64,000 nt of DNA. It comes from Candidatus Aminicenantes bacterium. Its GTDB lineage: Bacteria > Acidobacteriota > Aminicenantia > Aminicenantales > UBA8522. The DNA is taken from positions 25,494-89,493 of the forward strand of contig JBBILQ010000001.1 of the NCBI GenBank assembly GCA_037444845.1, given 5' to 3'. The notes beneath the pieces were generated by a model that worked only from the letters and a program-made list of their open reading frames with translations, did not search any database and was not told where the DNA came from. Below are positions 6,201 to 53,284 of this stretch, one piece after another (position 1 is the first letter of the stretch; every line of letters starts with the position of its first letter). Made by a program: the position numbers and the translations under genes.

Positions 6201-6453
6201 AACAGCCTCCGTCCAGGGCGAGCGATTTTAAAAAATAGCATAATGAAAGAAAAAGAAAAAAGCAAGAAAATGAATAAGCAAAACTTGGAAGAAGTAGAAG
6301 AAATGTCGGCATGCCGACATTTAGTTAAATAGATGAAAATAAAGTAGTTATATTATTTTAGAACGAGATAGAAGGCATGTGTTATGAAACATAATGATTG
6401 AAAAAATAAATCGATTGAAGGGAAAAAAGCGATCAAGTATAATCGGAAAAATC

Positions 6454-10848: not shown

Positions 10849-11070
10849 GGCCAGGCCCTGGACTTCTTCTCCCCCGTCTCCCCTCCCCCATCGCTTTGTT
10901 CTGCGTGCAAGGCTGGAAGGCTCGTTACCCGCCTGACCGGCGAGCCTGCCCGTTTCATTGTCCTATTCGTGCTTTCGAGCGTGGCGTAGATACGTCCCCT
11001 TATCTTTTTCGATTTGCTAAGCGGAAAGAGGTGCTTCTGAAAATAACGGAGAGTCGGCATCGACAGCGCT

Positions 11071-17557: not shown

Positions 17558-17849
17558 TCGTCCTCTTCAATGCCTTCTTTTCGTTCCTGCTCCCAGAAAA
17601 AGGGAAGTTATTATTCCTCAGTTGCGGCCTTTAGTCAAAAATGGAGCTGCTTGACAAAGTCCTCTTGAAGCGCTGATCTATCCTTCAATGTGCGGCTGCC
17701 TGCAAAAAACGTCTCCGGTTTCCTAACGCTTTGTATCTTATTCATACCCAATTAGATGTGTCAACTGCAAAATCCTTCTTGCCGCATTATCTTATTTGAG
17801 GTATTTTTTGAAGCCCTATACTTTCTTTAAAATAATGCAAGGAGGAATC

Positions 17850-20800
17850 ATGAGAAGAATAGCCACGATATTCTTAATTTGCATCCATTGCTTTTTCTTA
17901 GGTTTTCAAACCCTGGAAACCGTGGAAAGCGTTGGGGTCTGGGAGGATAAATTGATCATCCCGACCTACGAAGTATGTGCCGACAATCCGTATCCATGGT
18001 TCAATGAATGGAAAAGCGACGCGCCAATCTACCCTTATCCTTTCAAGGACTGTATGTCGTGGAAGAAGACCGAAAAAGAATACATCACGCTTGTCCTTGA
18101 AAACGAGTATCTTCGCGTTATTGTTTTGCCCGAAATTGGAGGTCACCTGTATCGGTTCGTTGACAAGGTCAACAACAGAGACATCATTTATACCAACCAT
18201 GTCATTAAGCCTGGTTACTTCGGTGTGCGCGGCGGGTGGTGCTCGGGAGGTTTTGAGTTCAACTTTCCAAAGGCACATTCTCCGACCACTATCTCACCTA
18301 TTGACTATGCCATACGGTCTAATCCTGACGGAAGTGCCTCTATTATCGTTGGGGACCTGGAAAGAATGTATCGAATGAAGTGGCAGGTTGTTCTGACTTT
18401 GCATCCAGGCAAGTGCTTTCTGGAGCAGGAGGTAACGCTGCACAATCGGACGCTTCTGCCGCACCGATATCACTGGTGGACAATTGTAGCAATGCACCCC
18501 AATGATAACACACAGGTCATATTTCCATCGGCGCGAATTATAAACCATCCCCAGGAATACATTATCACCTGGCCAATATGGATGGGGAGAGACAACAGCT
18601 TGTACAAGACTTTGCACCATCGTTTTGGCTCTGACTGGTCAATGCTCGAACCTTGGGATGGCTTCTTTTGTTATTATGACCATGGCATTGATGCTGGGCT
18701 GGTGCACGTCGCTAACAAACACGTGCTGGGAGGAACAAAGTACTTCTCGTATGGTAACACCACATCGGGAAGGTTCCATTCTGCCTACGTCATGTCGGAC
18801 GAGGACGGTCCCTACGACGAGATCGATAGTGGTCTCTTCTTGACTCAGGCCGACCACGAGATCTTCGAGCCTCTCGGTGTAAGGCACTGGCGTGAGTATT
18901 GGTATCCGGTGAATGGGACCCAAGGGCTCATAAAGGCCACAAGGGATGCCGCTTTGAATGGATGGAGAGATGGCGATCAGATCAATGTTGCATTGAACGT
19001 GAATTCCCTGCTGGAGGAGGGACGGATAATAGTTAAGACTGGTGAAGTGACGGCTATTGACGAGAGCTTTTCCCTCTCACCAGGAAAGGCCTATCAAAAG
19101 AAGGTCATGGCACCCTACGGTAGACTGTCGGTGGCTGTGACTGACTCCCAAGGCGAAGATATCTTGCGCTTCGCCGAGACTCCAATCGATGAAAGCAGCC
19201 TACCACCGGAAGGTCCGGTTTTAAAAAGGGAAAAAGATATCGAGGACATGAGCGTTGAAGAGGCTTGCCTGGCAGGGATATCTGCGCTGCGAGAGGAGAA
19301 ACCGTGGGAAGCACAGAAGTTTTTCAAGGGAGCCTTGAGGAAAGATCCTGGCCACTCTGCCGCACATTTGCAACTTGGTATTATCTACCTGAACCAGGGT
19401 TTGTGGAATGAGGCGGCGTCAGAGCTGAGGGCCGCGCTCAAGAGAAATCCCATGCAGGGCATGCCGCACTACTATCTGGGAGTGCTCCACAAGCTGATAG
19501 GCAACATGGGGCAGGCTGTTAACGACTTCTGGAAGGCAGCAAGATACACTGATGGGTACGGGAAAGCACACCATTGTCTCGGTCAAATCGCTCTTGCTGA
19601 AGCTGACTTTTTCAAAGCCATAGAGCATTTCCAAAACGCGCTTAAGGTAAACAGCCGCTCGGCAGAGACACAGGGATTTTTAGGGGCTGCGTACAGGAAA
19701 TCCGGCTGCTTCGAAGATGCTCAGGAAACAATCAAACTCATACTTCAAGACCAGCCCATTGATCACCTCGCGGCTTTCGAAGCATATCTACTTTCCAAGA
19801 AAGCCCACGAGAATGAAGAAGAGACGCTTGCGGCATTCCGTAAGCTGATGCGTGGCTGCGTCCACTCGTACATGGAGCTGTCGTGGACCTATGCAAATTG
19901 TGGGATGTATCAGGAGGCAATTGAGGTTTTGGATGACATTGTAAAAAGAGGTAAAGATGAACTCTATCCGATGTGTTACTATCAACTGGGCTATCTCTAC
20001 AGGAGAATCGGTGATGAGCAAAGAGCCGCAGTGCTGTATAGGATGGCGCGCTCAGCAAAAGATTGGCGATACGTATTTCCCAATCGTCTTGAGGAAATGT
20101 TGGTTCTGGAGGATGTGCTCAGCCATCAGCCAGATGACTACGGTGCGCGGTATGCCTTAGGGAACCTGCTGTCCTCTCGCTATCGATATCAGCACGCTAT
20201 AAAAGAGTGGGAAGCAGCCGCAGCATCAGCTGAAGCTGCAACAAAAGCCGATCGGCAGCGTCATGGCGCATGCCTGACCGCGCTTTATCGAAACCTTGCA
20301 TTTTTGCATTGGAAGAAAGAGAAAAAGATTGATAAGGCCATTTCCTATTATCGTGAAGCCATTGAATATGCACGCGGGCATTTCCAGTGCTGGGTAGAGC
20401 TTGCCCAGTTGTATAAGGAGGTAGAAGGTACCGACGAGGCTATCGCTGTGCTTGAATCTGGTCTGCGTGGGGTGACAAGACCGGCGGAGTTGGCTCTGGC
20501 ATTAGCTCCCCTGTATTTCGAGAGGAAGCAATACGACCGGATCATCGATATGCTGCCGAAGTACAAAAATGATGATTGGAAATCGCTGGAGGCACAGCGA
20601 TGGGTAAGGCGGGCGCGTCTTGAGAAAGGCAAGGCCTCCTTCAAGGCAGGTAAATTCGAGCAAGCGCTGAAAGAATTCTCAAAGGCAACAAAGATTTGCC
20701 GGGAGAACATACCCGTGCAAAACCTGCTGGTGCGCGAATTTGCCGAGATCCACTGGTGGGCGGGAAACACATATGCCAAGATGGGCAAACCCGATGAGGC

Positions 20801-21140
20801 AAGGAAGTGTTGGGCAGAAGTTGAGCTGGAGTGGCATGAACAGATATCACCTCTCAACTTCTACAAGGCAAAATGCCTCCAGGCTATTGGAAAGCATGCC
20901 GAGGCCGAGAAATTGCTCCGGGAGATGCTATTCTTTGGTGGAATGTATGCAAATCGCTACCCCCACAAGGGAGAAGATGCTAAGACGAGAATTGGCATGT
21001 ATAAATACCTGCAGGCACTCGCATACGAAGGGTTAGGCATGCAAGATGAAGCCACCAGACTCTATAACGAAGTATTGCAACTGATACCTGAACACGAGGA
21101 GGCCAAGGAGAAATTGCAAGTGGAAGCGCTAAAGAAGTAG
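17850..21140 (+). CDS. Large secreted protein: N-terminal mutarotase-like/DUF5107-type domain plus multiple C-terminal TPR repeats
   Basis: RBS GGAGG at 17841; signal peptide MRRIATIFLICIHCFFLGF; C-terminal half rich in TPR-like 34-aa repeats (e.g. AAHLQLGIIYLNQGLWNEAASELRAALKRNP). Confidence 0.65.
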   Translation: MRRIATIFLICIHCFFLGFQTLETVESVGVWEDKLIIPTYEVCADNPYPWFNEWKSDAPIYPYPFKDCMSWKKTEKEYITLVLENEYLRVIVLPEIGGHLYRFVDKVNNRDIIYTNHVIKPGYFGVRGGWCSGGFEFNFPKAHSPTTISPIDYAIRSNPDGSASIIVGDLERMYRMKWQVVLTLHPGKCFLEQEVTLHNRTLLPHRYHWWTIVAMHPNDNTQVIFPSARIINHPQEYIITWPIWMGRDNSLYKTLHHRFGSDWSMLEPWDGFFCYYDHGIDAGLVHVANKHVLGGTKYFSYGNTTSGRFHSAYVMSDEDGPYDEIDSGLFLTQADHEIFEPLGVRHWREYWYPVNGTQGLIKATRDAALNGWRDGDQINVALNVNSLLEEGRIIVKTGEVTAIDESFSLSPGKAYQKKVMAPYGRLSVAVTDSQGEDILRFAETPIDESSLPPEGPVLKREKDIEDMSVEEACLAGISALREEKPWEAQKFFKGALRKDPGHSAAHLQLGIIYLNQGLWNEAASELRAALKRNPMQGMPHYYLGVLHKLIGNMGQAVNDFWKAARYTDGYGKAHHCLGQIALAEADFFKAIEHFQNALKVNSRSAETQGFLGAAYRKSGCFEDAQETIKLILQDQPIDHLAAFEAYLLSKKAHENEEETLAAFRKLMRGCVHSYMELSWTYANCGMYQEAIEVLDDIVKRGKDELYPMCYYQLGYLYRRIGDEQRAAVLYRMARSAKDWRYVFPNRLEEMLVLEDVLSHQPDDYGARYALGNLLSSRYRYQHAIKEWEAAAASAEAATKADRQRHGACLTALYRNLAFLHWKKEKKIDKAISYYREAIEYARGHFQCWVELAQLYKEVEGTDEAIAVLESGLRGVTRPAELALALAPLYFERKQYDRIIDMLPKYKNDDWKSLEAQRWVRRARLEKGKASFKAGKFEQALKEFSKATKICRENIPVQNLLVREFAEIHWWAGNTYAKMGKPDEARKCWAEVELEWHEQISPLNFYKAKCLQAIGKHAEAEKLLREMLFFGGMYANRYPHKGEDAKTRIGMYKYLQALAYEGLGMQDEATRLYNEVLQLIPEHEEAKEKLQVEALKK

Positions 21141-25877: not shown

Positions 25878-26009
25878 TGTAAAAATTACTCAGCCGTCTT
25901 CAAGGATCGTCCGGCTGTTGAATATTTTATCTCTATTATGGTAATCATATTTTGAAACTCAACGTGTGAGTTCGAGTCTTTTTGGTCTGACCGGCCTGAC
26001 GAGGAACAG

Positions 26010-28661
26010 ATGAGAATCATGAAGAACAAAAACTTAGTGATTCTATGGCTCCTTGTTGGAATCGGGTTTGTGTTGAGGATATGGGGAACAGCCGGCGTCT
26101 ACATAAGAGGCGATGACTATATGCAGATCCACCAGGCAGGCATTGCGTACAATGAGTATGTTGACGCTGACGTTGGCTATCCTGTGTTTTATCAATACGT
26201 CGGCGGATTTATCCTTAAGGCGTTGAATAAGTTTCTTTACGTGATGGGGGCGATTGAAAAGGGGCACAAAAAAGAATGGAGCTACGATGAAGTCGCCATC
26301 ATCATGAGAATTCTTTCCGGTTTTTATGGAGCCATTTCTATTCTGTTGGTTTATCTTATTGCGAAGAAACTTTACGATGAGAAAGCCGCTCTTCTTTCCT
26401 CATTCTTTCTCACGTTCACCTTCTTTCACATTTTGACCGGGCATACGGCCCTTCTGGACAATCAGATGGGCTTTTTTATTCTTCTTGGCTTCCTGTTCAT
26501 GGTTGGCATAGCGAAAGAAGGAAAAACCCATCACTACCTTCTTGCCGGGTTGATGACGGGGTTTGCTATCTCTTCCAAATACAATGCCGTCTTTCTGGTT
26601 TTCACATTGCTTATCTCTCACATCATCCGCGTGTTTAAGAAAAAGAGGTTCTGGAAAATACTTTTTGATAAAAACATCATCCTTTCAGGACTCCTCCTCA
26701 TTTTTGGTTTCTTCCTGGGCAATCCTCCGGCCTGGATGGCGTTTAAAAAGTGGTCCAGTGGCATAGTTCAACTCGGTCGCATCATCCGCCAGCCAGACGC
26801 CTGGATGGTGACGTTTACTTTTTCCAATGTGTGGGATTTTTTGAAATACAACAAATACACGGGGGCAATTCTCAAGATTCACTACTCAATAAAAATCTCG
26901 TTGCTTCTATTGTTATTCTTAGGGCTTTTCATATTGATAAAAAGGCATAAAAAGGAAGACATTCTGCTTCTTTCATTCCCTTTCTTTTATGTCATCTTGG
27001 GACTTGGAATTTATGAGATCATAAGAGAAAGAGATCATTTCGCCCTCATCCCTTTCTATCTCATGATCGCCTCTGTCGCGTTTTTATGGCTCATCGAGGT
27101 GACAAAGAAACGTGTGCCTTCTCGAAAGATTCATTTTCTCATGTTTCTAATCCTGCTTATTCTTGCTTCTTATCCTTCTCTAAAAAACGCGGTGGACATC
27201 GCGTCCATTTTTCATGAAAGAGATACACTTGAATACGGGGAAGAATGGATTTATGAGAATATTCCGCCGAAGAGCACGAACGTATTCGAGATGTACACGC
27301 CCTTCGTTTATACTCCCATGGAGAAATATCAGTCCATTTTTCCGAACAGATTCCGACTGATGTTCTACTTCATCATGGGAAGATGGCTTAGAGAAAATCC
27401 TTTTGATTCCTTGAGAAAAGATGGCAGGTTTGTTCACGTATCGAACTTGAACCCCCGGAGGTTTATCGGGATAGAAAAATTTTATGCGAAAGAGCTGAGC
27501 TTTTATAAAAGGATTTTTAGAGAGTTTAAAGTGGTTAAAAAATTTTCACTGAGAGAGGTCGAATCAAAGAGTCCAACCCTATACATCTTTACGACGAAAA
27601 GACTTCCCCTTCGAGAAATCCCCTTGCTCTTTCCCGAACAACTCTCCTTGAATCAAAGGGAAACGGATATCTTTTTTGATGATCCGGGAATTTACGGCAA
27701 GAGCAATCTTATTTTTGTCCTGGAAGGAAGAGGTGCTGCTGAAAGGAGAATCCTTTCGCGGAAAGGGATCAAAGAGTTCGTTGTTTTCCTTTACGGAAAC
27801 GGCGGGGAAGAAGTCAAGATATTGGAGAAAAGGACGACCCTTGGACAATCGGGGTTTGCGTTTGTCCGTCTCCGTCTGCCCAAAAAAACTTATCCCTTCT
27901 CAGAACCCACGTATCGCATTCATATCAAGTCTCTTGCTGACCATCCAGTCCTGGTGAAGGTCCATCACGATCCGCTAAAAATTGGTTACGAGTTCTTCAA
28001 GAACGGCATGTTTGAAGAAGCGTCCAGGTTTTTTTCAGCAGCGAGAGAAGAAAATCCCGACAACCCAGACGCCTTGTTGTACCTTCGCGAAACACGGACA
28101 CGAATGGGAAAGGAAATCGAAAAGCTTTCGGCCAGGGATGCAGATAGAATCCATTCCATTTTCAACCTCCAGAATATGGAGAATTGGATGAAAAGGATGG
28201 AAAAGATGACGGGAATCGACGTGGAATTTCTCATCGATTCGCTTTCTCTTTACCTCGAGGTTGAGGATCTTTCCGGGGATGATCCCGTTGTCCACGATCC
28301 AAAGTTTTTGAACCGCAAGGCGCTGCTGGCCGCCAAGCCTTCCCGCATCGAACTTCCCTTCTTTCTTCCGCAATCCTATGTGGCGACGATAAAGGCTTCT
28401 AACCCGGAAGGCCCGTTAACCTCCGACCTCAAGATTTTTTCCGCGGGACGCTTCTGGGCCCCAACGAAGGTTGATCGTGGTGGAGATTTATTCTGGTGTA
28501 TCGAGATTCCTTTCCAAAAAGACATGGACACCGCTTCTCTTGACATCGATGTCAAGGATTCTTTTCTCCTCCTCGACAGCATCTGGATAAGGCCGGATAT
28601 CAGAAATTTCTTCGTGGAGAAAAAAGGAGACCTTTCCTTTCTCTCCCCTCACGAGAGGTAA
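26010..28661 (+). CDS. GT-C-fold (ArnT/PMT-like) membrane glycosyltransferase-like protein with large C-terminal soluble domain
   Basis: ~12 TM N-terminal half with acidic DD motif in first extracytoplasmic loop (IRGDDYMQIH), aromatic-rich loops; C-terminal ~450 aa soluble with TPR-like segment; visibly AT-richer than flanking genes. Confidence 0.5.
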   Translation: MRIMKNKNLVILWLLVGIGFVLRIWGTAGVYIRGDDYMQIHQAGIAYNEYVDADVGYPVFYQYVGGFILKALNKFLYVMGAIEKGHKKEWSYDEVAIIMRILSGFYGAISILLVYLIAKKLYDEKAALLSSFFLTFTFFHILTGHTALLDNQMGFFILLGFLFMVGIAKEGKTHHYLLAGLMTGFAISSKYNAVFLVFTLLISHIIRVFKKKRFWKILFDKNIILSGLLLIFGFFLGNPPAWMAFKKWSSGIVQLGRIIRQPDAWMVTFTFSNVWDFLKYNKYTGAILKIHYSIKISLLLLLFLGLFILIKRHKKEDILLLSFPFFYVILGLGIYEIIRERDHFALIPFYLMIASVAFLWLIEVTKKRVPSRKIHFLMFLILLILASYPSLKNAVDIASIFHERDTLEYGEEWIYENIPPKSTNVFEMYTPFVYTPMEKYQSIFPNRFRLMFYFIMGRWLRENPFDSLRKDGRFVHVSNLNPRRFIGIEKFYAKELSFYKRIFREFKVVKKFSLREVESKSPTLYIFTTKRLPLREIPLLFPEQLSLNQRETDIFFDDPGIYGKSNLIFVLEGRGAAERRILSRKGIKEFVVFLYGNGGEEVKILEKRTTLGQSGFAFVRLRLPKKTYPFSEPTYRIHIKSLADHPVLVKVHHDPLKIGYEFFKNGMFEEASRFFSAAREENPDNPDALLYLRETRTRMGKEIEKLSARDADRIHSIFNLQNMENWMKRMEKMTGIDVEFLIDSLSLYLEVEDLSGDDPVVHDPKFLNRKALLAAKPSRIELPFFLPQSYVATIKASNPEGPLTSDLKIFSAGRFWAPTKVDRGGDLFWCIEIPFQKDMDTASLDIDVKDSFLLLDSIWIRPDIRNFFVEKKGDLSFLSPHER

Positions 28662-28668
28662 AAACGGC

Positions 28669-30948
28669 ATGGGGATTTTTTCGCGCGAAACCCGGAAAAG
28701 GAGGGATCTTTTCATTGTGATTCTTTTGGCCGGGTTTTTCTTGAGGTTCTGGGGATTGTCTTCCGACCTCATGAGAACAGATGATGCCGCCGTTGCTCAA
28801 ACGATCCTGGCGGTCTACCACGGTGTTTTTAACGAAGATTCGATCCTCCAGAGCTCGTTTTTTTTCACCTTTTTTCCTGCCCTTGTGATGAAAGGAATCT
28901 CCGTTTTTCTGTCGACGATTTTTTTTCATAAAGAAGCCTCTGTTTATCCCTTCACGTTGAGCCAGACTATTTTCCTCTCAAGAGTCGTCATCGCATTCAT
29001 GGGATTTCTGAGCATTCCCGTTCTCTATCTTTCCATGAAGAGGCTGGCCCGGGAACAGACAGCTCTTTTGGGAACATTCCTCTTTTCCATCTCCTTTGTT
29101 CACATCTTCCACAGCCACAGACTTGCCCCCGACATTCCAGCCGCTTTCTTCGTGCTTTTGTGCCTGTATTGTTCCCTGGCCATCTATGAATCTGGAAGAT
29201 GGCACAATTATTTTCTTGCGGGAGTCTTTGCCGGGCTCGCAGCATTGTCGAAGCCCGCTGCGGGTTTAGCCGTGCTTGTCATCGTTTGTGCCCATTTTCT
29301 GAGATGGCAAAGAGGAAAACCGTTGTTCCCAACCGTTTTTAGCCTCAAGCTGTTCCTTGGCGTTTTTTCGTTTCTTCTGGGACTGGTGATGGGCCATTGT
29401 GTGTTCATTAAAAAATTTCCCTCCTTGACGCGATCGATGTCACTTCTTTTTAGGCTTGAGCCTCAGCCAGAAAATATTTCATTGACGATGAAGCCAGCAG
29501 GAATCGTTGGACAGATGCTTACAACCAAGCATGGCCAGGCATTTGCTCATGTCTTCTCCGTAGAGGGCGCGATTTTTTTCTTTTTGATCGTCTTCGGCGT
29601 TGTCATGATTTTTTTTCTCAAGAGAAAAAAAGAAACCCTGCTTTTTTTTGCCTTTCCCATCCTCTATCTGGCCGCTATCTCGCTCATCGGCATGCGTTCG
29701 CTCAGAGACCTTGTATTCCTCTCTCCCTTTTATTCTTCTGTTGCGGCGCTGGGATTATTTTTTCTGGTCGATCGAAGATGGAAGAAACGTGGAAGAACAA
29801 CCGCTCGTGCGGTCGTCGCCCTACTGCTCATCGCGATTTTTGGCCGCGCTGTCTGCAACGGATACTTGATCTGGGATGATGATACATCCGAGATTTCTCA
29901 TAGATGGATGCTCAGGAATATGAGCGAAGAAACACGAAACAAAACCTCCCTCTCCGCGGATCTTCAAGAGCATGGGTGCGTCAAGGAGTTCTTTCTCAAA
30001 GAAATTGAATCCAAAAATGCTCCGATAAAGATTTACAGAGGAACAAATATGAAGACGCAGAAAATGCGCCTTCCGCTTCCTGACGTTCCCTATCAGAAAA
30101 AGATTCCGAGAGAGTTTGAGATTCTGGACGGGAGTCCATACGGGAAGGAGACCAAAAGTTTCTGGATTGAAGAAGGGGATAGAATTGAAAGAATATTCAT
30201 ATCCAGAAAGCCTTTAAGAGGAATTGCTATATTTTTTCTCAGCAATGAATCGGATGGCTCTGTCGCAATAAGGAATTCCGTCCAGAAGAAGACAATCAAG
30301 CTGGAAAAAGGAAAAAACACGCGCATCGTCATGAAGCCTTTTTTGTCCTTTCCCTACCATAAATATCGCTACAGCATAAGGATAGAGGGAAAGAAAGGAC
30401 TAAGGGGCTCGTTCGTAAGAGTTGTCCCTGATCAAATCGAAGCGGGACGTCCATTCCCTGACGATGGGTTGGACAAGGAAGCCAGACAGGAAACAAGCAT
30501 CGACCCCGATTTTTTTGCCGAATCCAAAAGCATAAAGCTTCAGGCAGAAGACATGGAACAGAAAAGTTCCCAGCTCGTCGAATCTGATTCTTTTTCCGGC
30601 GGAAAGGGAATGATGTTCATGAAAGACGGAGAGGAGGGGCAGCTTTCTTCCTCCCGGTTAATCCTGTATCCAGGAAAATACAGCCTTCAGCTGAACGTGA
30701 TATTTCTGGGCGCACAAAAATCAATTCATTCCTCCATTGCCTTTATTCAAGGCAATCGGAAAACGGAATACCGGATATCTCCTGAAAACTCGTCTTTTTC
30801 TGAGAATATGGCCAAGATTGACCTTGCCTTCGATATATCCGAGTTGAAACCTTTCTCCATACATATCGCAATCAAAGAAAGGGATACTTTTATCCTTGAT
30901 TATTTAAAAATCTCTCCTTCTTTGGATGGGCTCTTTTTGGAAAAATAA
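28669..30948 (+). CDS. GT-C-fold (ArnT/PMT-like) membrane glycosyltransferase-like protein, paralog of upstream gene
   Basis: Same architecture (LRFWGL..MRTDDAAVAQT first-loop DD motif, multi-TM N-terminus, soluble C-terminus); starts 8 nt after previous stop. Confidence 0.5.
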   Translation: MGIFSRETRKRRDLFIVILLAGFFLRFWGLSSDLMRTDDAAVAQTILAVYHGVFNEDSILQSSFFFTFFPALVMKGISVFLSTIFFHKEASVYPFTLSQTIFLSRVVIAFMGFLSIPVLYLSMKRLAREQTALLGTFLFSISFVHIFHSHRLAPDIPAAFFVLLCLYCSLAIYESGRWHNYFLAGVFAGLAALSKPAAGLAVLVIVCAHFLRWQRGKPLFPTVFSLKLFLGVFSFLLGLVMGHCVFIKKFPSLTRSMSLLFRLEPQPENISLTMKPAGIVGQMLTTKHGQAFAHVFSVEGAIFFFLIVFGVVMIFFLKRKKETLLFFAFPILYLAAISLIGMRSLRDLVFLSPFYSSVAALGLFFLVDRRWKKRGRTTARAVVALLLIAIFGRAVCNGYLIWDDDTSEISHRWMLRNMSEETRNKTSLSADLQEHGCVKEFFLKEIESKNAPIKIYRGTNMKTQKMRLPLPDVPYQKKIPREFEILDGSPYGKETKSFWIEEGDRIERIFISRKPLRGIAIFFLSNESDGSVAIRNSVQKKTIKLEKGKNTRIVMKPFLSFPYHKYRYSIRIEGKKGLRGSFVRVVPDQIEAGRPFPDDGLDKEARQETSIDPDFFAESKSIKLQAEDMEQKSSQLVESDSFSGGKGMMFMKDGEEGQLSSSRLILYPGKYSLQLNVIFLGAQKSIHSSIAFIQGNRKTEYRISPENSSFSENMAKIDLAFDISELKPFSIHIAIKERDTFILDYLKISPSLDGLFLEK

Positions 30949-33900
30949 CTAAAGCTTGACCTCTGCCGGCGCCTTGATGGGCTTCTGTCCCGATTCCTCA
31001 AGCGCCCTGTTCAGAGCCGGCAGGTCCTCTCGGATGAGCCTGTTGAGTTTTTCGACCAGGGCATCGACTTTCCTGGATATATCTTCGAGCTGCGCGAGGT
31101 CTGTCTTGGTCGGGGCAGAAGGATGACCGGCAATAGATGTCCCCAAGGTTAGAAGCATCTGGTTCAAGGACCCTCCCCGCAGGACATCTTCACGCGTCCG
31201 CTGCGCCGTGATATCGCCGGGAACAATTGCTTTTTCAACAGGATGGAATTTTTCCTCAAAGGTTTTTAAGGCGATGGCCAACGACTCAGGCTGCTTCTCT
31301 TCCTTCTTGAGGTCCTTCATCAGGCCTTCCGCCTCCCTGCGGATATTCGTGGCTGCTGTTATGGATAATCCCATTTTTTTCGAAAGAATCAACAGCTCAG
31401 CGATGGCTTCGTGCTGTTCTTTTATCTCCTCTGTAGATACCTGAAACCTTGGATCGGCCAGGACAGCGGCCTGAGATTTGAATTTCTGGCCGTCCACGTT
31501 GAGCTCAACCGTGAATTCACCCGGTTCGACGAGCGGCAAGGAGGCAAACCCTATGGCAGGCGGAGTGACTTTGGTCCCATCTTTTGATTTGGGCGCAGTC
31601 TGGAGACTCCAGTATTCTCTCTGGAGGCCCTCCTGGATGGCCAGGTTGAGCTCAAAAACCGTCTCGCCGTCTTTGTTGAAAATGGTTACCTTAGGCTTTT
31701 CCTTGGGCTTAGCCAGAAGATGAGCGGTGATGGCCATCCCATAGGCTGGGTTTTTCGCGGCAAAAACGGGTTTTGTCCAGGATTCCCGGCGCGAGGACAT
31801 GTGATAAGCGAACGTCGGCCGGATGCTAAACATGCGGGCCGGAGCCGAAAGGACTTCTGGGCGCATCTCCTGGAGGAAGGAAATGTCGTCCAGAATCCAT
31901 ATCCCGCGGCCGTGGGTGCCGATAATCAGGTCATTGTCGCGGGGGTGGATGGCAATATCGTGGACGGCCACGGTCGGGAGGTTGTTCTTCAAGGAAAACC
32001 AGGAGGCGCCGCCGTCGAGAGAGGCAAAAACGCCGAACTCGGTGCCGACAAAGAGGAGATTCTTGTTCTTCACATCCTCGCGGATGACGTTGACCCAGCC
32101 GAACGGCAGGTTGCTCTTGATGGATTTCCAGGTTTTTCCGAAGTCCGTCGTCTTGAAGACGTACGTGCCATAATCATCGTGGCGGTGGCCGTCAAAAGCG
32201 GCGTATGCCGTGCCCGCTTCAAAACGCGAAGCCTCTACCCTGGAACACCAGGTTCCGGTAGGGAGTCCCGGGATGCGGCGGACGACATTTTCCCAGGTTT
32301 TGCCGTTGTCCCGGGTAAGTTGGAGGTTGCCGTCGTCCGTGCCGCACCAGATCACGCCCCTTTCTACGGGAGACTCGGAGATGGCCGTGATTGTGCAGTG
32401 GCTTTCCGCGCCCGTGTTATCGAGAGTGATCGGCCCGCCCGAATCTTTCTGCTTGGCCTGGTCATTGGTCGTCAGGTCTGGGCTGATGATCTCCCAGGAG
32501 GATCCCCTGTCTTGTGTCCTGAAAAGGTAATTTCCGCCGGTGTAGACAGTCGCGGAGTCGTGGGGCGAGATGTGGATGGGCGAGTTCCAATTGAACCGGT
32601 AAGGAGGGTCACTTAGTCCTCCGATCGGTTTTATCATTTTACTCTTACCGATCCGCCAGTCGTAGCGGTAGAGGTTGTTGACCTGCCAGTTGCTGTAAAC
32701 TGTGTTCGGGTCATTCGGGTCGGGCTGAGCAAAAAACCCGTCTCCGCCTCCGATGCTCGTCCAGTCGTCGTTGGCGATGCCAGCGCTGTCCGTAGTGGCG
32801 CTCGGGCCGGCCCAGCTGCCGTTGTCCTGAAGCCCGCAGTAGACGTAATACGGTTGCCGCATGTCGTACCCGACCTGGTAGACCTGGGCCAGGTCCATGC
32901 TCTGGACCGGAAGCCAGCTCTTTCCTCCGTCGTAAGAGATATCGATCCCGCCGTCATTGCCCTCGATGAGATGGAGCGGGTTGGAGGGGTTGATCCAGAG
33001 AGCATGGTGGTCCGGGTGGATGCCAAAACCGATGGACCTGAATTTCTGGCCGCCGTCCGTGGAGACGTGAAGCCCGGTTGAGAGCACGTAGACGACCTTG
33101 TCGTTTGTCGGGTCAACGCGGATATGGCTGTAGTAGAACGGCCGCGTGTTGACCCGCCTATACGTCTGGACGTCACACATCCTTTTCCACGTCTCTCCAT
33201 GGTCTTCTGAGCGCCAGATTCCGCCGTCCTTGTGCTCGATGAGAGCATAGACGACCCCGGGAGCGCTCCTGGCCACATCAATTCCAATCCGGCCCATGAT
33301 GCCCTCGGGCAGGTCTTTGGTCAGGTGCTTCCAGGTTTCGCCGCCGTCTGTCGTTTTATAAAGGCCGCTTCCCGGGCCGCCAGAGGAAAAATGATAAGGA
33401 AGCCGGCGGTGTTCGTAGGCGGCCGCATAGAGGATGAGGCTGTCGCCGGGGTCCATGGCCAAGTCGGCAAACCCCGTATCGGCGTTGACGTAAAGGACTT
33501 TTTTCCAGGTTTTGCCGCCGTCGATGGTTTTATAAATCCCCCTCTCTTCGTTCGGCCCCCACAAATGGCCCATGGCCGCGACATAGATTATATTGGGATC
33601 GCCGGGGTTAATGATGATGCGGCGGATATGTCGTGTTTCCTTGAGGCCCATATTCTGCCAGGTTTTGCCGCCGTCCACAGATTTGTAAACGCCATCGCCG
33701 ATGGTGACGCTGTTGCGGCAGGTGGCCTCCCCTGTCCCGACCCAGACGATGTCCGGATGAGACGGCGCGATAGTGACGTCGCCGACAGAGACAGTCGCTT
33801 CCTTATGGAACACAGGGCTCCAGGTGACGCCGCTGTTCTCCGACTTCCAGACGCCGCTCGGGCCGATGGCGGCGTATATGATCCACGGCTTCTCCGCGAC

Positions 33901-34080
33901 GGCGTCGATGTCGACTGTTCGGCCTCCCATCACGGCAGGGCCCAAAGCCCTCCAGGAGAATTTTTCGTAGAGCTTTCCGACCTTGTCTGCGCTCTGAGCC
34001 TGGACGAGCAAAGGGAAGAGCGCAAGAGAAACAAGCGGCCAAAGCCATTTTCCGGATAACCCGGCAGACAATCTGGACAT
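30949..34080 (-). CDS. Secreted BNR/Asp-box-repeat tandem beta-propeller protein (Sortilin-Vps10/GH74-like)
   Basis: Start ATG 34080 (GGAGG RBS), signal peptide; >=10 Asp-box repeats S/T-x-D-x-G-x-T-W (SVDGGKTW, TIDGGKTW, TTDGGETW, SEDHGETW, TRDNGKTW, TTDFGKTW...). Confidence 0.75.
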   Translation of the reverse strand: MSRLSAGLSGKWLWPLVSLALFPLLVQAQSADKVGKLYEKFSWRALGPAVMGGRTVDIDAVAEKPWIIYAAIGPSGVWKSENSGVTWSPVFHKEATVSVGDVTIAPSHPDIVWVGTGEATCRNSVTIGDGVYKSVDGGKTWQNMGLKETRHIRRIIINPGDPNIIYVAAMGHLWGPNEERGIYKTIDGGKTWKKVLYVNADTGFADLAMDPGDSLILYAAAYEHRRLPYHFSSGGPGSGLYKTTDGGETWKHLTKDLPEGIMGRIGIDVARSAPGVVYALIEHKDGGIWRSEDHGETWKRMCDVQTYRRVNTRPFYYSHIRVDPTNDKVVYVLSTGLHVSTDGGQKFRSIGFGIHPDHHALWINPSNPLHLIEGNDGGIDISYDGGKSWLPVQSMDLAQVYQVGYDMRQPYYVYCGLQDNGSWAGPSATTDSAGIANDDWTSIGGGDGFFAQPDPNDPNTVYSNWQVNNLYRYDWRIGKSKMIKPIGGLSDPPYRFNWNSPIHISPHDSATVYTGGNYLFRTQDRGSSWEIISPDLTTNDQAKQKDSGGPITLDNTGAESHCTITAISESPVERGVIWCGTDDGNLQLTRDNGKTWENVVRRIPGLPTGTWCSRVEASRFEAGTAYAAFDGHRHDDYGTYVFKTTDFGKTWKSIKSNLPFGWVNVIREDVKNKNLLFVGTEFGVFASLDGGASWFSLKNNLPTVAVHDIAIHPRDNDLIIGTHGRGIWILDDISFLQEMRPEVLSAPARMFSIRPTFAYHMSSRRESWTKPVFAAKNPAYGMAITAHLLAKPKEKPKVTIFNKDGETVFELNLAIQEGLQREYWSLQTAPKSKDGTKVTPPAIGFASLPLVEPGEFTVELNVDGQKFKSQAAVLADPRFQVSTEEIKEQHEAIAELLILSKKMGLSITAATNIRREAEGLMKDLKKEEKQPESLAIALKTFEEKFHPVEKAIVPGDITAQRTREDVLRGGSLNQMLLTLGTSIAGHPSAPTKTDLAQLEDISRKVDALVEKLNRLIREDLPALNRALEESGQKPIKAPAEVKL

Positions 34081-34192
34081 CTTGCCTCCTTCTTTCTTTA
34101 CATCTTCAAGGAAATTCATTATAAGATACGTCCTTGATAAAATATAGTTTTCCCTCAGCTTAACATGAAGATTTTGCAGGAAGGAGGATGGA

Positions 34193-36244
34193 ATGACGCG
34201 CGGGATGTCGGTTTTTCTTTCTGTTGGCCTCGGCCTTGGCATCGCCTGTGCGGCGGCCTGGGCTGCAGATATTTCTTTTAGCCAGTATCATAAACCCGAA
34301 GAAGTCAACGCCCTGCTCAAGTCCCTGGCTTCACAGAAGCGGCAACTGGCCAGGTTCATCAGCCTGGGTAAATCGAGCGCCGGCACAGAAATCGCAGCGC
34401 TCCGGCTGGCTGCTCAGCCCAAGGGTAGCACAGACCCGGATTCCCGGCCGGCGGTGTTCATCTCCGCCAACCTGGAGGGCATTCACCTGGTCGGAACCGA
34501 AGCCGCCTTGAAGCTGGCCGAAAAGTTGATCAAAGGTTATGGCTCCGATAAGTTGGTCACCGGGCTGTTAGATACAAGAACAATATATGTGGCGCCGCTC
34601 CTCAACCCGGACGCAGCGCAAGCCTATTTCTCTTCGCCACGCTTTGAGAAGGTGACGAACAGCCGGCCCATCGACGACGACCTGGATATGAAGACTGACG
34701 AGGACGGTCCGGATGACCTGAACAACGACGGCCTGATCACCCAGATGCGGGTCAAGGACCCCGAGGGAAAATGGATTGCCGACCCGGCCGAGCCCAGGCT
34801 CATGCGCCTCGCTGACCCGAAAAAGGGGGAGAAAGGTGTCTATACGCTTTACACGGAAGGCCTGGATAATGACAGCGACGGCGAGTTCAATGAGGACCCG
34901 CCGGGCGGAGTCGCCATCAACCGCAATTTCCCTCATGATTTCGAGTACAATACACGGATCGCGGGACTGTGGCCAGTCTCTGAAGAAGAAACGCTGGCCC
35001 TGGTCAGGTTTCTTGTTACGCATCGCCATATCGCTATGGTCCTGAACTTTTCTACTGAGAACACCATCCTTAATCTGCAGCAGACAGGACAGGCCCGGGC
35101 GGGCGCAGACAGAGTCAGAGTCCCTCGCCAGTTTGCTTCCTTCCTCGGCCTCGAACCCGACCAGGAATACACCCTCAAGGAGATTGCCGAAGCAGCAAGA
35201 GCCTCGGGCATGGGAGGCGGCATGGAAATCACCGAAGACATGGTGGCCTCTTTCCTCGGGTTGGGCCCGGCCGTGACCATCGACCGCCAGGACATGCCCT
35301 TTCTCGAGGCGATCCAGAAGGAATATAAGGACGCGCTCAAAGAGGCCAAAGTCGATTATCCAGAAAAAAGGGCTAAGGGCGTGGGCAAGGGCTCTTTTGT
35401 CGCCTACTGCTATTATCAGTACGGCGTTCCTGTCTTCTCTGTCGATTTATGGTCGGTGCCAGAGCCGAAAAAGGAACCGGCCAAGGACGCCCTCACAGAG
35501 GAAAAGTTGAAATCTATGTCCTCCGAAGAGTTCCTGGCGCTCGGAGAGGACAGGATTTCGGCTTTCCTCAAAGAGCAGGGAGCTCCGCCGAATTTCAGCG
35601 CCGAGATGCTCATCAAAATGGTCAAGTCCGGCCAGGTAACGCCGCCGCGGATGGCCGATATGATGGCAAAAATGCCCCGGCGGCCCCAACCAGATGGCGA
35701 TGAGCACCCGGACCTCTACATCCTGAAATGGGCCGACGAAGCCTGGAAAGGCAAGGGCTTTGTGCCCTGGACGCCGTTTAAGCACCCGACCTTAGGAGAA
35801 GTGGAAATTGGCGGGTTTATTCCCCTCCTTAAGATTAATCCTGCGCCCGAAGAGATGGAAAAGACGCTCGCGGTCCATGCTGATTTTTACGTCAGACTGA
35901 TGACAAAACTTCCTGAGCTTCAGGTTCGGGAGGCAAAGGTCGAGGCTCTTAGCCAGGAGCTTTACCAGGTTACGGTCTTCCTGACCAATGAGGGCTGGTT
36001 CCCGACGTCTACTGCCCAGGGCCAGCGGGCCCAAACTGCCTGGCCGATTAGAGTGACTCTGAAAACGGAACCGGGGCAAAGCGTCTTTTCAGGACGACCT
36101 GTCGAGACAATTCCTTTTCTCGGCGGGAGTGGCGGCACCAAAAAAGTAGAATGGACAGTCAGGGGAAAGAAAGGCTCCCGCCTGACCGTTACCGCGGGCT
36201 CGCCGAAGTTAGGCACGGTCACGGCGACGATTATCCTGGAGTAA
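34193..36244 (+). CDS. M14 carboxypeptidase-family paralog with non-canonical zinc motif (ExxH instead of HxxE) - possible pseudo-enzyme
   Basis: Signal peptide; aligns with downstream M14 paralog along length incl. Asp-rich insert (DDDLDMKTDEDGPDDLNNDG); where paralog has NIHGNEIQGAE this protein has NLEGIHLVGTE. Confidence 0.65.
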   Translation: MTRGMSVFLSVGLGLGIACAAAWAADISFSQYHKPEEVNALLKSLASQKRQLARFISLGKSSAGTEIAALRLAAQPKGSTDPDSRPAVFISANLEGIHLVGTEAALKLAEKLIKGYGSDKLVTGLLDTRTIYVAPLLNPDAAQAYFSSPRFEKVTNSRPIDDDLDMKTDEDGPDDLNNDGLITQMRVKDPEGKWIADPAEPRLMRLADPKKGEKGVYTLYTEGLDNDSDGEFNEDPPGGVAINRNFPHDFEYNTRIAGLWPVSEEETLALVRFLVTHRHIAMVLNFSTENTILNLQQTGQARAGADRVRVPRQFASFLGLEPDQEYTLKEIAEAARASGMGGGMEITEDMVASFLGLGPAVTIDRQDMPFLEAIQKEYKDALKEAKVDYPEKRAKGVGKGSFVAYCYYQYGVPVFSVDLWSVPEPKKEPAKDALTEEKLKSMSSEEFLALGEDRISAFLKEQGAPPNFSAEMLIKMVKSGQVTPPRMADMMAKMPRRPQPDGDEHPDLYILKWADEAWKGKGFVPWTPFKHPTLGEVEIGGFIPLLKINPAPEEMEKTLAVHADFYVRLMTKLPELQVREAKVEALSQELYQVTVFLTNEGWFPTSTAQGQRAQTAWPIRVTLKTEPGQSVFSGRPVETIPFLGGSGGTKKVEWTVRGKKGSRLTVTAGSPKLGTVTATIILE

Positions 36245-40571: not shown

Positions 40572-42020
40572 ATGAAAATCGCGATGTTGAGCTCGGAGGT
40601 TGTGCCTTATGCCAAGACCGGCGGTCTGGCGGATGTCACGGGGGCATTACCCAAGTACCTGAGCGAAGCAGGAGCGGAGGTGCGGGTTTTCCTGCCGCTC
40701 TACAGAGAGACGAAAAAAAAGAACCTGCCCCTCGAGAAGGTGGTCGATGGCCTCAAGCTCGAATGGGCCGGAAAAACCGAGCTGTACTCAATTTGGGAAC
40801 ACCGCCAGAATTCCCTCTCTTTTCTCTTTGTCGAGAAGGACGCCTATTTCGACCGGGATTATCTTTATGGAAACACGCAAGGAGATTATCCTGATAACGG
40901 CGAGCGATTCGCCTTTTTCTGCCGGGCGGCGCTCGAGACTCTGAAAGTCCTGGGGTTTCAACCCGATATCCTCCACAGCCACGACTGGCAGGCGGCTATG
41001 ACGCTGGCCTATCATAAGCTTGGATATGCGGATGACACGTTTTTTTCTTCCGCTCGTTCTCTCTTTACCATTCACAACCTGGCCTACCAGGGAATTTTCG
41101 AACGGGAGGTGCTCGGCAGGATCGGACTTCCTGATGCCCTCTTCAATATGGAGGACCTCGAGTTTTATGGCAAAGTAAACTTCCTCAAGGCGGGTGTCTT
41201 ATACTCCACAGCCGTTAGCACGGTCAGCCCCCGTTATAGCCAGGAAATCCAGACGCCCGAGTTCGGGCATCGCTTGGACGGGTTGCTGAGAAAACGCCAC
41301 TACGACCTCTACGGTATCCTGAACGGTGTCGATTATTCCGAATGGAATCCAGCCACCGACAGGTTCATCGCCAGGAATTTTGACGCCGACAGCCTGACCG
41401 GAAAGGAAGAATGCAAGAAAGATCTGCTTCAATCTTTTTCTCTGCCGCCTGAAGCTGAGAAGGAGCCGGTCGTGGGTATGGTGTCGCGTCTGGCGGGCCA
41501 AAAGGGCTTTGACCTTCTCACACAGGCCGTCGAGGAGATTTTCCGAAGCGGAGCCAATCTCATCATCCTGGGGACGGGCGAGGAGGTATACCAGCACGCG
41601 CTCCAGGCGGTCCAGAAGCAGCATCCCCGGCGCTTTGGCCTGAAGATTGCTTTTGATGAGGGTCTGGCTCATAAAGTCTATGCCGGGAGCGATATCTTCC
41701 TCATCCCTTCCCGTTATGAGCCCTGCGGCCTGACCCAGATGTACAGCCTTCGCTACGGGACGGTGCCGGTGGTCCGGGCGACCGGCGGCCTGGAGGACAC
41801 CATCCGGGAATTCAACCCGGAAAAACAGGCCGGCAATGGGTTCAAGTTTGTTGAGTACGAGAAGACCGCCCTCGTCAACGCTGTCCGGAGGGCTTTGGCT
41901 GTTTACCAGGATAAGGAAAAATGGCAGACTCTCATGAAGAACGCCATGGCATGCGATTTTTCCTGGGAGCGGTCAGCCCGCGAGTATATCCGCCTTTACA
42001 AACGCCTTTTATCACCCTGA
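40572..42020 (+). CDS. glgA: Glycogen (starch) synthase, ADP-glucose type
   Basis: N-terminal E-x7-KTGGLADV motif (SSEVVPYAKTGGLADV), GT5 architecture, 482 aa. Confidence 0.9.
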   Translation: MKIAMLSSEVVPYAKTGGLADVTGALPKYLSEAGAEVRVFLPLYRETKKKNLPLEKVVDGLKLEWAGKTELYSIWEHRQNSLSFLFVEKDAYFDRDYLYGNTQGDYPDNGERFAFFCRAALETLKVLGFQPDILHSHDWQAAMTLAYHKLGYADDTFFSSARSLFTIHNLAYQGIFEREVLGRIGLPDALFNMEDLEFYGKVNFLKAGVLYSTAVSTVSPRYSQEIQTPEFGHRLDGLLRKRHYDLYGILNGVDYSEWNPATDRFIARNFDADSLTGKEECKKDLLQSFSLPPEAEKEPVVGMVSRLAGQKGFDLLTQAVEEIFRSGANLIILGTGEEVYQHALQAVQKQHPRRFGLKIAFDEGLAHKVYAGSDIFLIPSRYEPCGLTQMYSLRYGTVPVVRATGGLEDTIREFNPEKQAGNGFKFVEYEKTALVNAVRRALAVYQDKEKWQTLMKNAMACDFSWERSAREYIRLYKRLLSP

Positions 42021-42055
42021 AGGCATCTAACCTGTCATTTTGCGAATAATCCGGG

Positions 42056-43081
42056 CTAACTTGAGCTTCGCATGAAACCGGCTGCGGTCTCTGGCGGCAC
42101 GGGGTTGATGTAAAAACCCGTTCCCCACTCGAACCCCGCCACCCGTGTAAGAACAGGGATAATCTCGAGGTGCCAGTGGAAGCTCTCTCTCAGGTTGGCC
42201 CAACCTTCGTGAGGCAAATTGGGATTGGGCGCCTGGTGGATGTAAAAATTAAAAGGGGGGTCGGAGAGGATGACCTTGAGTTTCCCCAGGGTCGTCTTTA
42301 TCGTCCTGGCCAGCCAGAGGGATTCGACTTTGGTCAGGCACGTGTACCAGGCGGAGTGCCGCAGCGGATAGATTCGCATTTCAAAGGGGAAGCGTGGGGC
42401 AAAAGGAGCCATGACGCAAAAATGTTCGTTGCGCAGGATGAGCCGCTCGCCCTCGCTCGTCTCATCGCGGATGATACGGCAGATGATGCATTCGCCGTGC
42501 TGCCGATGAAGCCTCTCGCAACCATAAAGCTCCTCGTTGACCTTCTTGGGGATGATGGGAGTGGCCACAATCTGGGAATGCGGATGGCTGAGGGATGCGC
42601 CGGCCTCCCGTCCTTTGTTCTTGAAAACATGGACATACTTGTACTGGAACTCCTTCTCGATACTGAGCACGCGCTTCTTATAGGTCTCCAGCACTTGTTG
42701 GATGTGGTAAAGGGGCAGGTCGGGAAGCTCCCTGTCGTGGTCGGGAGTTTCGATGACGACCTCGTGCACGCCCACGCCGTCCATCCAGCGGAATATCCCG
42801 TCCTCATGCTGGACAGGGGGCATACCCCTTGTCAGAGCCGGGAATTTGTTGGGAACGACCCGAACCAGCCACCCCGGTTTATTAGGCCGCGTTCCGTTTT
42901 TCCGCAGCGCGTAGACCTCGCGGGGGGTTTTGGATTCGTTACCCTCGCAGAAAGGGCAAAAGCCTGCCGGTTCCTTTTTTTTCTCCGTCGGAGCGGGCCT
43001 GAAGTCATCCGGCCTTTTGCCCCTTTCGGCGGCGATGATGACCCAGCGGCCGCTGATGATATCCTTCCGTAACTGGGACAT
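42056..43081 (-). CDS. GalT-like HIT-family hexose-1-phosphate nucleotidyltransferase (galactose-1-P uridylyltransferase or ADP-glucose phosphorylase-type)
   Basis: Zinc-knuckle CPFCEGNE and active-site HPHSQ motif; last gene of the alpha-glucan operon. Confidence 0.8.
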   Translation of the reverse strand: MSQLRKDIISGRWVIIAAERGKRPDDFRPAPTEKKKEPAGFCPFCEGNESKTPREVYALRKNGTRPNKPGWLVRVVPNKFPALTRGMPPVQHEDGIFRWMDGVGVHEVVIETPDHDRELPDLPLYHIQQVLETYKKRVLSIEKEFQYKYVHVFKNKGREAGASLSHPHSQIVATPIIPKKVNEELYGCERLHRQHGECIICRIIRDETSEGERLILRNEHFCVMAPFAPRFPFEMRIYPLRHSAWYTCLTKVESLWLARTIKTTLGKLKVILSDPPFNFYIHQAPNPNLPHEGWANLRESFHWHLEIIPVLTRVAGFEWGTGFYINPVPPETAAGFMRSSS

Positions 43082-43084
43082 TTT

Positions 43085-43444
43085 CTACCCGATGAGCTCC
43101 TTGATTTTAGATTTGAGCTCGTCTAGGGAGGCGGATTTGACGATGTACGCGTCTGCCGCCCAGGTCATGAAATCGTGCTTGTAGCTCTGGTAGGCGGTAT
43201 TGATGATGATGGGGATGTCCTTGCGGAGAGCCATGATCTGGGTGATGAGCTCGATCCCGTTCTTGACCGGCATCCGGATGTCCGTGACGATGAGGTCAAA
43301 CGGCTGCTTATTGATCTGCTGCACGGCCGTTTCGGCGTCTGAGACGGCGATCACTTTGTACCCCTCCCGTGTCAGCTCTTCGCGGTAGAGCAGACAGAGG
43401 TTTTTTTCGTCCTCGACGATGAGGAGTTTTTTCTTTTTTTTCAT
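43085..43444 (-). CDS. Single-domain response regulator (CheY-like receiver only)
   Basis: 119 aa; receiver motifs LLIVEDE, phospho-acceptor D in DLIVTDIRMP, conserved T/K; 4-nt overlap with upstream kinase gene. Confidence 0.85.
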   Translation of the reverse strand: MKKKKKLLIVEDEKNLCLLYREELTREGYKVIAVSDAETAVQQINKQPFDLIVTDIRMPVKNGIELITQIMALRKDIPIIINTAYQSYKHDFMTWAADAYIVKSASLDELKSKIKELIG

Positions 43445-53196: not shown

Positions 53197-53284
53197 CTCA
53201 TTTCCTCTTCATGGACGCTCCATTGATAGCATAGAGAGGGGGTGAAGTCAAAGCTGCGCGCCTGGGGTCGCCGGGAGACGGGGC

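Follow-up and report, generated by a model that had tools for sequence, protein, structure and literature searches.

What does a tandem pair of genes for large, polytopic membrane proteins contribute to the envelope of an uncultured bacterium, and did the pair originate in the genome that now carries it? These questions are raised by a 64-kb stretch of DNA from a Candidatus Aminicenantes bacterium (contig JBBILQ010000001.1, positions 25,494 to 89,493; this whole analysed stretch is the window in what follows), in which two adjacent open reading frames (ORFs), called A and B here, form an island of low GC content. Aminicenantes are abundant bacteria of subsurface and sediment, uncultured, with envelopes that are uncharacterised. 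The reading that we favor, and on balance hold to be probable, is that A and B are anciently duplicated glycosyltransferases of the GT-C superfamily, that A moves a polyprenyl-phosphate-linked sugar to an envelope glycan, that B is catalytically impaired or repurposed, and that the pair came from a lower-GC relative. The two genes are:

26010-28661, plus strand: gene A, GT-C glycosyltransferase of 883 amino acids (aa), with all family motifs intact save the one that follows the last transmembrane helix
28669-30948, plus strand: gene B, GT-C paralog of 759 aa, depleted of motifs

These coordinates verify the two adjacent ORFs of an earlier note on this DNA, which had been made by eye from the letters and their translations; the gap between the genes is 7 nt. 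Proteins identical to A and B are encoded on a 132-kb contig of a metagenome-assembled genome (GCA_964548295.1) and in an assembly from an independent read set, and the ORFs are therefore not assembly artefacts.

Fold, motifs and soluble domains

Membership of the GT-C superfamily is defined by 7-13 transmembrane (TM) helices and by conserved acidic residues in the first extracytoplasmic loop. Against the Pfam models PMT_2 (PF13231) and PMT (PF02366), which have gathering cut-offs of 26.1 and 22.7 bits, A reaches 54.0 and 52.7 bits, respectively, and the values for B are 48.4 and 35.3 bits. Searching the sequences of the Protein Data Bank with the single proteins returns TPR matches only for A and none for B; reaching the PMT structures requires a profile, and that of the A family (16 sequences) finds solved Pmt4 (9i5k, E=8e-7) and Pmt1. 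The AlphaFold2 (AF2) models of A and B match STT3, AglB, PglB, Pmt4, EmbA/B, ALG9 and ArnT with a Foldseek probability of 1.0 (for B against Pmt4, the template modeling score is 0.52), and this similarity of the predicted structures to solved GT-C enzymes shows A and B to have the GT-C fold. That they use a sugar donor linked to a lipid phosphate is suggested indirectly, by homologs whose operons include a GT2 resembling polyprenyl-phosphate-sugar synthases and a GacJ-type protein. NCBIfam offers no usable family for A, and for B only a sub-threshold match to Agl23.

Hydropathy, the helices of the AF2 models and the charges of the loops give 11 TM helices for each protein, with the N-terminus inside. 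The hydrophobic stretches end by residue ~403, which together with the positive-inside rule makes the C-terminal half soluble and periplasmic. BLASTP aligns the membrane halves of A and B at 25% identity over 430 aa (E=5e-34) and the C-terminal halves at 28% identity over 196 aa. The earlier note had seen tandem paralogs with a GT-C-type membrane half of ~12 TM helices, a DD motif in its first extracytoplasmic loop, and a large soluble C-terminal domain: paralogy, fold and the division into a polytopic and a soluble half are all borne out, the DD motif proves to be real and conserved, and the number of helices has to be revised to 11. Of the two observations by which the earlier note could have been refuted, a GC content within the genomic distribution and a structure prediction lacking the GT-C fold, neither was made. 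The parts of the two proteins are distributed as follows:

26010-27215, plus strand: membrane domain of A (residues 1-402), 11 predicted TM helices, N-terminus inside, C-terminus outside
26106-26117, plus strand: R33-G-D35-D36 motif of A, in the first extracytoplasmic loop, after TM1
27663-27965, plus strand: first beta-sandwich of A (residues 552-652), AF2 strands with a predicted local distance difference test score (pLDDT) of ~75-91; homologous to B residues 433-614
27972-28244, plus strand: TPR-like helical insert of A (residues 655-745), AF2 helices with pLDDT ~85-94
28248-28595, plus strand: second beta-sandwich of A (residues 747-862), resembling carbohydrate-binding modules (CBMs) of the CBM6/35/36 type
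28774-28785, plus strand: R36-T-D38-D39 motif of B, in the first extracytoplasmic loop
29869-29886, plus strand: I-W-D-D-D-T of B (residues 401-406)
30109-30426, plus strand: first beta-sandwich of B (residues 481-586), AF2 strands; homologous to A residues 504-690
30532-30918, plus strand: second beta-sandwich of B (residues 622-750), CBM-like

Alignments of A-type proteins (16 homologs), of B-type proteins (16 sequences) and of relatives that occur as a single copy place every conserved motif on a predicted outer loop. In A, R33 and D36 are invariant and D35 is kept in at least 90% of the 16 homologs; the position of D36 is invariant across A, B and the single-copy relatives, as D39 is in the 16 B-type sequences. 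The R-x-D-D of A is the putative catalytic acidic pair. The other motifs of the family are H-x4-D after TM3, K-Y-N between TM5 and TM6, a segment with Trp in the long TM7-TM8 loop, R-x-R-D between TM9 and TM10, and W-[DE]-D-D-T directly after the last TM helix. A retains every one of them but W-[DE]-D-D-T, in place of which it has E-R-D-T. The B of the window retains R-x-D-D, H..D, R-D and W-D-D-D-T, with K-P-A instead of K-Y-N; the H-x-T-E-W of the fourth extracytoplasmic loop (EL4) is gone. Compared with A, it also lacks a linker segment of ~64 aa and the TPR-like insert. The position of W-[DE]-D-D-T, E-R-D-T in the A-type proteins, is analogous to that of the WWDYG of oligosaccharyltransferases.

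The second sandwich of A has the beta-sandwich jelly-roll fold that characterises CBM6/35/36, and Foldseek likens that of B to CBM35, tandem CBM22, the CBM of Xyn30D and the beta-sandwich domains of Cry toxins. None of the CBM families of Pfam matches either protein. The insert between the sandwiches of A is assigned to the TPR class by a weak match to Pfam TPR_19 and by a profile that matches consensus TPR proteins at residues 660-711. In a HMMER search with residues 535-883 of A, 17 of 1.84 billion representative proteins match at E<=0.001, so that the sandwich-TPR-sandwich module is taken to be lineage-specific. When nine of the 17 were scanned against Pfam, four proved to be full-length proteins (810-1077 aa) with PMT_2, while five were shorter, with TPR only or no match; several of the weaker matches cover the TPR stretch only.

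Base composition and history of the pair

The GC contents of A (0.439) and B (0.453) are the lowest among the 44 genes of the window, tied with ParB; the flanking genes are at 0.55-0.57 and the window at about 0.54-0.55, and the step in composition coincides with the borders of the A-B pair. GC at third codon positions (GC3) is 0.53 in A and 0.51 in B against a window mean of 0.645, and GC3 observed minus expected (~0.65) is -0.115 for A (z -1.65) and -0.137 for B (z -1.95). Recoding A and B with the codon usage of the window predicts GC contents of 0.487 and 0.509, so that approximately half of the deficit resides in amino-acid composition and half is synonymous. The AT-richer codon usage that the earlier note had perceived by eye is thus a matter of measurement, at a GC of 0.44-0.45 and with its synonymous component included, and the same impression of the 1114-aa TPR protein is upheld in mild form (GC 0.494; GC3 0.556 against an expected 0.647, a difference of -0.09). 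The TPR gene (17796-21140, plus strand) combines DUF5107 with multiple TPRs, and its true start is likely the ATG at 17850.

Full-length relatives are present in about 15 species-level genomes among the 185,579 that were scanned, a count that is a lower bound since the scan uses peptide patterns. Many carry the labels Aminicenantes, Aminicenantia or Aminicenantales, and several are labelled Clostridia, Clostridiales or Eubacteriales; from these sequences A and B would so far represent a small GT-C (PMT_2/ArnT-like) family confined almost entirely to Aminicenantes-type (Acidobacteriota) genomes. A neighbor-joining tree separates the A-type from the B-type sequences, with 100% bootstrap for either clade, and the two subtrees are congruent, ((window, L013), L006) standing apart from (L001, L003, L009), which implies that the duplication is old and that the two genes have travelled together. 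The pair is met in three unrelated genomic contexts. Genomes of 35% GC have the order (methyltransferase), A, Acetyltransf_6, methyltransferase, B, adjoining MacAB-type genes; those of 59% GC have A followed directly by a short, motif-poor B, adjoining Fer4/CdhD/MarR genes; and in the window the pair lies between MttB and a BNR/sortilin-type gene. The context of the window is shared by L013, a sister genome with an A that is 85% identical, and with an additional amidohydrolase gene, at 6412-7839, in the interval from MttB to A.

Between the window and L013, A has diverged with a synonymous rate (dS) of 0.39 and a nonsynonymous-to-synonymous ratio (dN/dS) of 0.20, the corresponding values for neighbouring genes being 0.37-0.68 and 0.06-0.24. 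A is under purifying selection and functional. Because its dS falls in the range of its neighbours, the low-GC state predates the split of the two genomes and has persisted since. Family members, compared with the neighbouring genes at 16 loci, typically lie 2-6 points lower in total GC and at parity in GC3; the exceptions are the window (-0.115, -0.131), L013 (-0.158, z -4.8) and a single outlier, L015. It is plausible, on this circumstantial evidence, that the pair entered the ancestor of the window genome and L013 from a lower-GC relative, in an old transfer that amelioration has not yet erased.

An explanation that dispenses with transfer has a minor but appreciable chance of being right: a hydrophobic composition rich in Lys, Phe and Ile, together with relaxed codon selection in weakly expressed resident genes, would generate the same AT-richness. 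In its favor, amino-acid composition accounts for about half of the deficit, almost all genomes have their family members those 2-6 GC points lower than the neighbouring genes, and GC3 observed minus expected is equally low or lower in ParB, ParA and the ORFs at 10201-10848 and 53198-54124, genes that look resident. There is no tRNA gene in the window, no significant repeat flanking the pair and no integrase or mobility gene adjacent to it, and the divergence of A from its L013 counterpart resembles that of the neighbouring genes. Against this explanation stands the confinement of the synonymous deficit (-0.12 to -0.16 in GC3) to the window and L013, 14 other family members being within ~0.05 of their neighbours, apart from one; so do the exact fall of the composition step at the gene-pair borders and the occurrence of the pair in three different contexts in different lineages. 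The horizontal acquisition that the earlier note had suggested consequently survives in part: the restricted GC3 deficit and the three contexts favor it, and the absence of mobility marks, together with a dS of A that places the event before the split from L013, speaks against a recent one.

Low GC3 is also a property of other parts of the window. A second AT-rich patch at ~4-11 kb (4612-6265 and 9194-10848), comprising ParB, ParA and two ORFs of 302 and 215 aa that have no Pfam match, is as low in GC3 (0.46-0.56) as the GT-C pair. An ORF of 308 aa at 53198-54124 (minus strand), likewise lacking a Pfam match, has a GC1 (GC at first codon positions) of 0.69 and a GC3 of 0.50, with an observed-minus-expected value of -0.154.

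Donor, acceptor and the status of B

The most informative guide to function is the company kept by the single-copy relatives, which are 25-32% identical to A and B and share their architecture, B being nearer to them than A is. In 13 loci (L055-L057, L014-L025, L038) the single-copy GT-C gene stands near the end of a conserved operon, here the cassette, with the order GT2 (~232-247 aa), DUF2304, a small EamA protein (9 loci), Acetyltransf_6, an S-adenosylmethionine-dependent methyltransferase, Polysacc_deac_1/DUF3473 (7 loci), GT-C and a methyltransferase. NCBIfam placements of the cassette genes, all of them below the curated cut-offs, put the GT2 protein nearest to PpgS, AglJ, dolichyl-phosphate hexose transferase, PgfS and ArnC, the EamA protein nearest to ArnF and ArnE, the acyltransferase nearest to the PEP-CTERM-associated FemAB family (pepcterm_femAB) and the deacetylase nearest to that of the XrtA system. 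The Acetyltransf_6 and methyltransferase genes that separate A from B in the low-GC genomes are orthologs of cassette genes (41%, 43% and 30% identity), which identifies the A/B loci as reduced derivatives of the cassette operon.

DUF2304 is the family of GacJ and Rv3632, small membrane proteins that bind the synthases GacI and PpgS and stimulate them; GacI makes undecaprenyl-phosphate-GlcNAc and PpgS makes polyprenyl-phosphate-GalNAc, and these lipid-linked sugars are used, in the mycobacterial case after deacetylation, by the GT-C enzymes GacL and Rv3779 (bioRxiv 10.1101/180810; PMC9671496). The gene content of the cassette predicts a previously undescribed pathway for a tailored, lipid-linked amino sugar. 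As to the acceptor, extracytoplasmic CBMs hold the glycan acceptor in the GT-C enzymes EmbA/B/C, AftD and ORF12, the founder of GT136; in ORF12 the CBM follows TM11 and binds the acceptor backbone (PMC11127046).

These elements suffice for a provisional scheme. At the outer face of the inner membrane, A would take a sugar, probably a hexosamine derivative, from a polyprenyl-monophosphate carrier and would pass it on to an acceptor in the envelope; a polysaccharide or a glycan of the lipopolysaccharide (LPS) type, held by the CBM-like domains, is most likely. The donor would be made by genes elsewhere in the genome, only the two transferases being left in the window. That the sugar should be a hexosamine, and glycan decoration the outcome, is suggested because the single-copy relatives share their operon with a GT2 like GacI and PpgS, a DUF2304 protein of the GacJ type, a flippase like ArnE/F, a FemAB-like acyl- or aminoacyltransferase, S-adenosylmethionine-dependent methyltransferases and a deacetylase of the polysaccharide type.

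For B, the depletion of motifs makes it probable that the protein of the window is impaired in catalysis or serves another purpose, such as that of a glycan-binding partner. Within the low-GC clade A is 71-73% and B 72-80% identical (dN/dS 0.13 and 0.14), whereas between the window and L006 A is 54% and B 40% identical, and the B of L006 and L010 has lost nearly all motifs. The B of L010 (GCA_033549365.1; 10001-11734) additionally has a premature stop that leaves it 577 aa long, as against 696 aa in L006, and without the last beta-sandwich. In L013, B is recognisable for codons 9-35 only; its expected place (10753-10850) is occupied by 98 N flanked on both sides by GGAAATTCGGGGGA, after which unrelated, AT-rich sequence runs on for ~310 nt, with stops in every frame, to the BNR stop. 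B appears, then, to be dispensable in at least one genome.

Several points weigh against this scheme. The mean pLDDT of the AF2 models is 70 for A and 68 for B, a moderate confidence (values of 75-94 prevail in the membrane domains and the beta-sandwiches), and A is unmodelled from residue 399 to residue 533. The likeness to CBMs is a match at the level of the fold only. No gene for a donor synthase, flippase, deacetylase or FemAB-like protein was found in the 64 kb of the window by tblastn or Pfam, so that the pathway is extrapolated from those distant relatives. Between L006 and L010, dN/dS is 0.20 for B (from 49 synonymous and 30 non-synonymous differences) and 0.18 for A; since this holds for B proteins even poorer in motifs than that of the window, B-type proteins are not simply decaying, and the view of B as a pseudogene in the making has been softened for that reason. 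A clean loss of B in L013, once considered, has been withdrawn, for the run of 98 N may be an assembly gap or masking, which makes the extent of the loss uncertain.

Rather than decorating a polysaccharide, A and B could be amino-sugar transferases of the ArnT/LgmB type acting on lipid A or the LPS core, in adaptation to cationic peptides or of envelope charge; we regard this as unlikely. ArnT is the characterised lipid A transferase among the structural matches, but with 541 residues it is far shorter than A and B. The NCBIfam ArnT model matches neither protein, the GT-C of the cassette scores 19.5 bits with it against a cut-off of 567, the GT2 of the cassette scores best against the HexNAc-phosphate-polyprenol synthase PpgS and not against ArnC, and the 64-kb window contains no arn genes. 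A literature search for Aminicenantes together with ArnT found nothing relevant. Large CBM-like modules are not known from lipid A transferases such as ArnT. Where GT-C enzymes have CBMs, as in Emb, AftD and GT136, they act on polysaccharides (PMC11127046).

A much more specific version of the favored reading has only a slim chance of holding: that a new GT-C family installs a hexosamine, deacetylated, then N-acylated or aminoacylated, and methylated, on an envelope glycan of Aminicenantes, A being the catalytic member and B, short of K-Y-N and the EL4 motif yet still under selection, a CBM-bearing pseudo-enzyme that holds the acceptor. Pmt1-Pmt2 and EmbA-EmbB would be the analogs of such a complex, except that here one of the two subunits would have ceased to be catalytic.

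Least probable of all is that A and B are protein O-glycosyltransferases (PMT/TMTC-like) with secreted substrates, for instance the BNR and M14 proteins beside them: Pfam detects no MIR (beta-trefoil) domain in either and the TM7-TM8 loop has only ~44 residues, the adjacency to BNR and M14 is kept only in the close sister genome, B and the 1097-aa BNR/sortilin-type gene are convergent, stop codon against stop codon, and hence not co-transcribed, the known sequons (D-S/T-hydrophobic, D/E-x-N-x-S/T, N-x-S/T) are not enriched in the neighbouring BNR, M14 and TPR proteins, and the operons of homologs encode amino-sugar tailoring that resembles glycan or lipid decoration. The earlier note had read a role in protein or glycan modification at the envelope from the proximity of these secreted proteins and had proposed checking them for sequons. 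The argument from proximity does not hold up, orthologous pairs elsewhere adjoining MacAB or Fer4/CdhD genes, and lends no support to the BNR and M14 proteins as targets; a glycan or glycoconjugate role, by contrast, gains backing from the operon context of the homologs.

The surroundings of the pair can be described briefly. Upstream lies a cassette of RACo, a corrinoid protein and MttB, separated from A by the left edge of the low-GC segment:

25878-26009, plus strand: AT-rich intergenic region of 132 nt, from the mttB stop to gene A

In this region a ribosome-binding site, GAGGA, precedes the ATG of A by 4 nt; a consensus promoter was not found on its plus strand, nor did promoters or terminators rise above chance at the borders of the A-B island. 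An Rfam scan of the whole window at gathering thresholds returned nothing. The protein of the BNR/sortilin-type gene (30949-34242, minus strand) has one N-x-S/T site where shuffling predicts 5.6; its ORF start overlaps the start of the M14 gene, and the real start is probably an internal Met before the signal-peptide-like MSRLSAGLSGKWLWPLV. Farther away, a glycogen metabolism cluster occupies 40572-49750 (GT5 glycogen synthase, a GalT-like protein, a response regulator and histidine kinase, a GlgC-type nucleotidyltransferase and two GH57 enzymes), and three consecutive paralogs of the amidohydrolase family lie at 59566-63915 (minus strand).

Comparison with known systems

This GT-C family, restricted in lineage and unusual in its periplasmic module, provides, together with the complete operon of its relatives for a tailored lipid-linked amino sugar, a testable handle on surface decoration in this phylum, and adds an example both of CBM-bearing GT-Cs and of paralog pairs with one motif-shedding member. 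The window locus is the stripped-down end of the series and its direct value is accordingly modest; the cassette operon in 13 Aminicenantes loci is worth study of its own.

The nearest functional parallels are the three-component systems in which a GT-C uses a polyprenyl-phosphate sugar: GtrA/GtrB/Gtr*, GacI-GacJ-GacK-GacL of Streptococcus pyogenes, PpgS-Rv3632-Rv3779 of mycobacteria, and ORF15/14/12 (GT136) of Citrobacter. The operon of the relatives resembles them in having a GacI/PpgS-like GT2, then a GacJ-type DUF2304 protein and a small flippase, and it differs from them in its additional genes, for a FemAB-like protein, two or three methyltransferases and a deacetylase, and in its flippase, which resembles ArnE/F and not GtrA, Wzx or MATE. 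The window, unlike these systems, holds GT-C genes only, and two of them, with neither GT2 nor flippase. Compared with ArnT (GT83), A and B are 200-340 residues longer through their CBM-like domains, and compared with the Arn pathway they have no gene for Arn-type sugar-nucleotide synthesis nearby; the lipid A glucosamine pathway of Bordetella is LgmABC.

It is to the PMTs of GT39 (Pmt1/2/4 and actinobacterial Pmt) that A and B are most closely related in sequence, and the loop-1 acidic pair and the 11 TM helices are common to both; the pairing of A with B also recalls the Pmt1-Pmt2 heterodimer. In contrast to those enzymes, A and B have no MIR domain in a luminal loop, their soluble domain is C-terminal and CBM-like, and the operons of their homologs suggest an amino sugar instead of mannose. 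From STT3, PglB and AglB (GT66) they are set apart by the absence, in both sequences, of WWDYG and of a match to the Pfam STT3 model. EmbA/B/C and AftD, finally, share with A and B the combination of a GT-C membrane domain with extracytoplasmic CBMs for a glycan acceptor, although no relationship was found at the level of sequence, their donor is decaprenyl-phosphate-arabinose, and the matched Emb chains (1037-1078 residues) and AftD (1264 residues) are much larger. As in GT136 ORF12 and Emb, the CBM-like domains of A and B follow TM11, and as in embCAB the genes are tandem paralogs, the Emb enzymes working as hetero- or homodimers.

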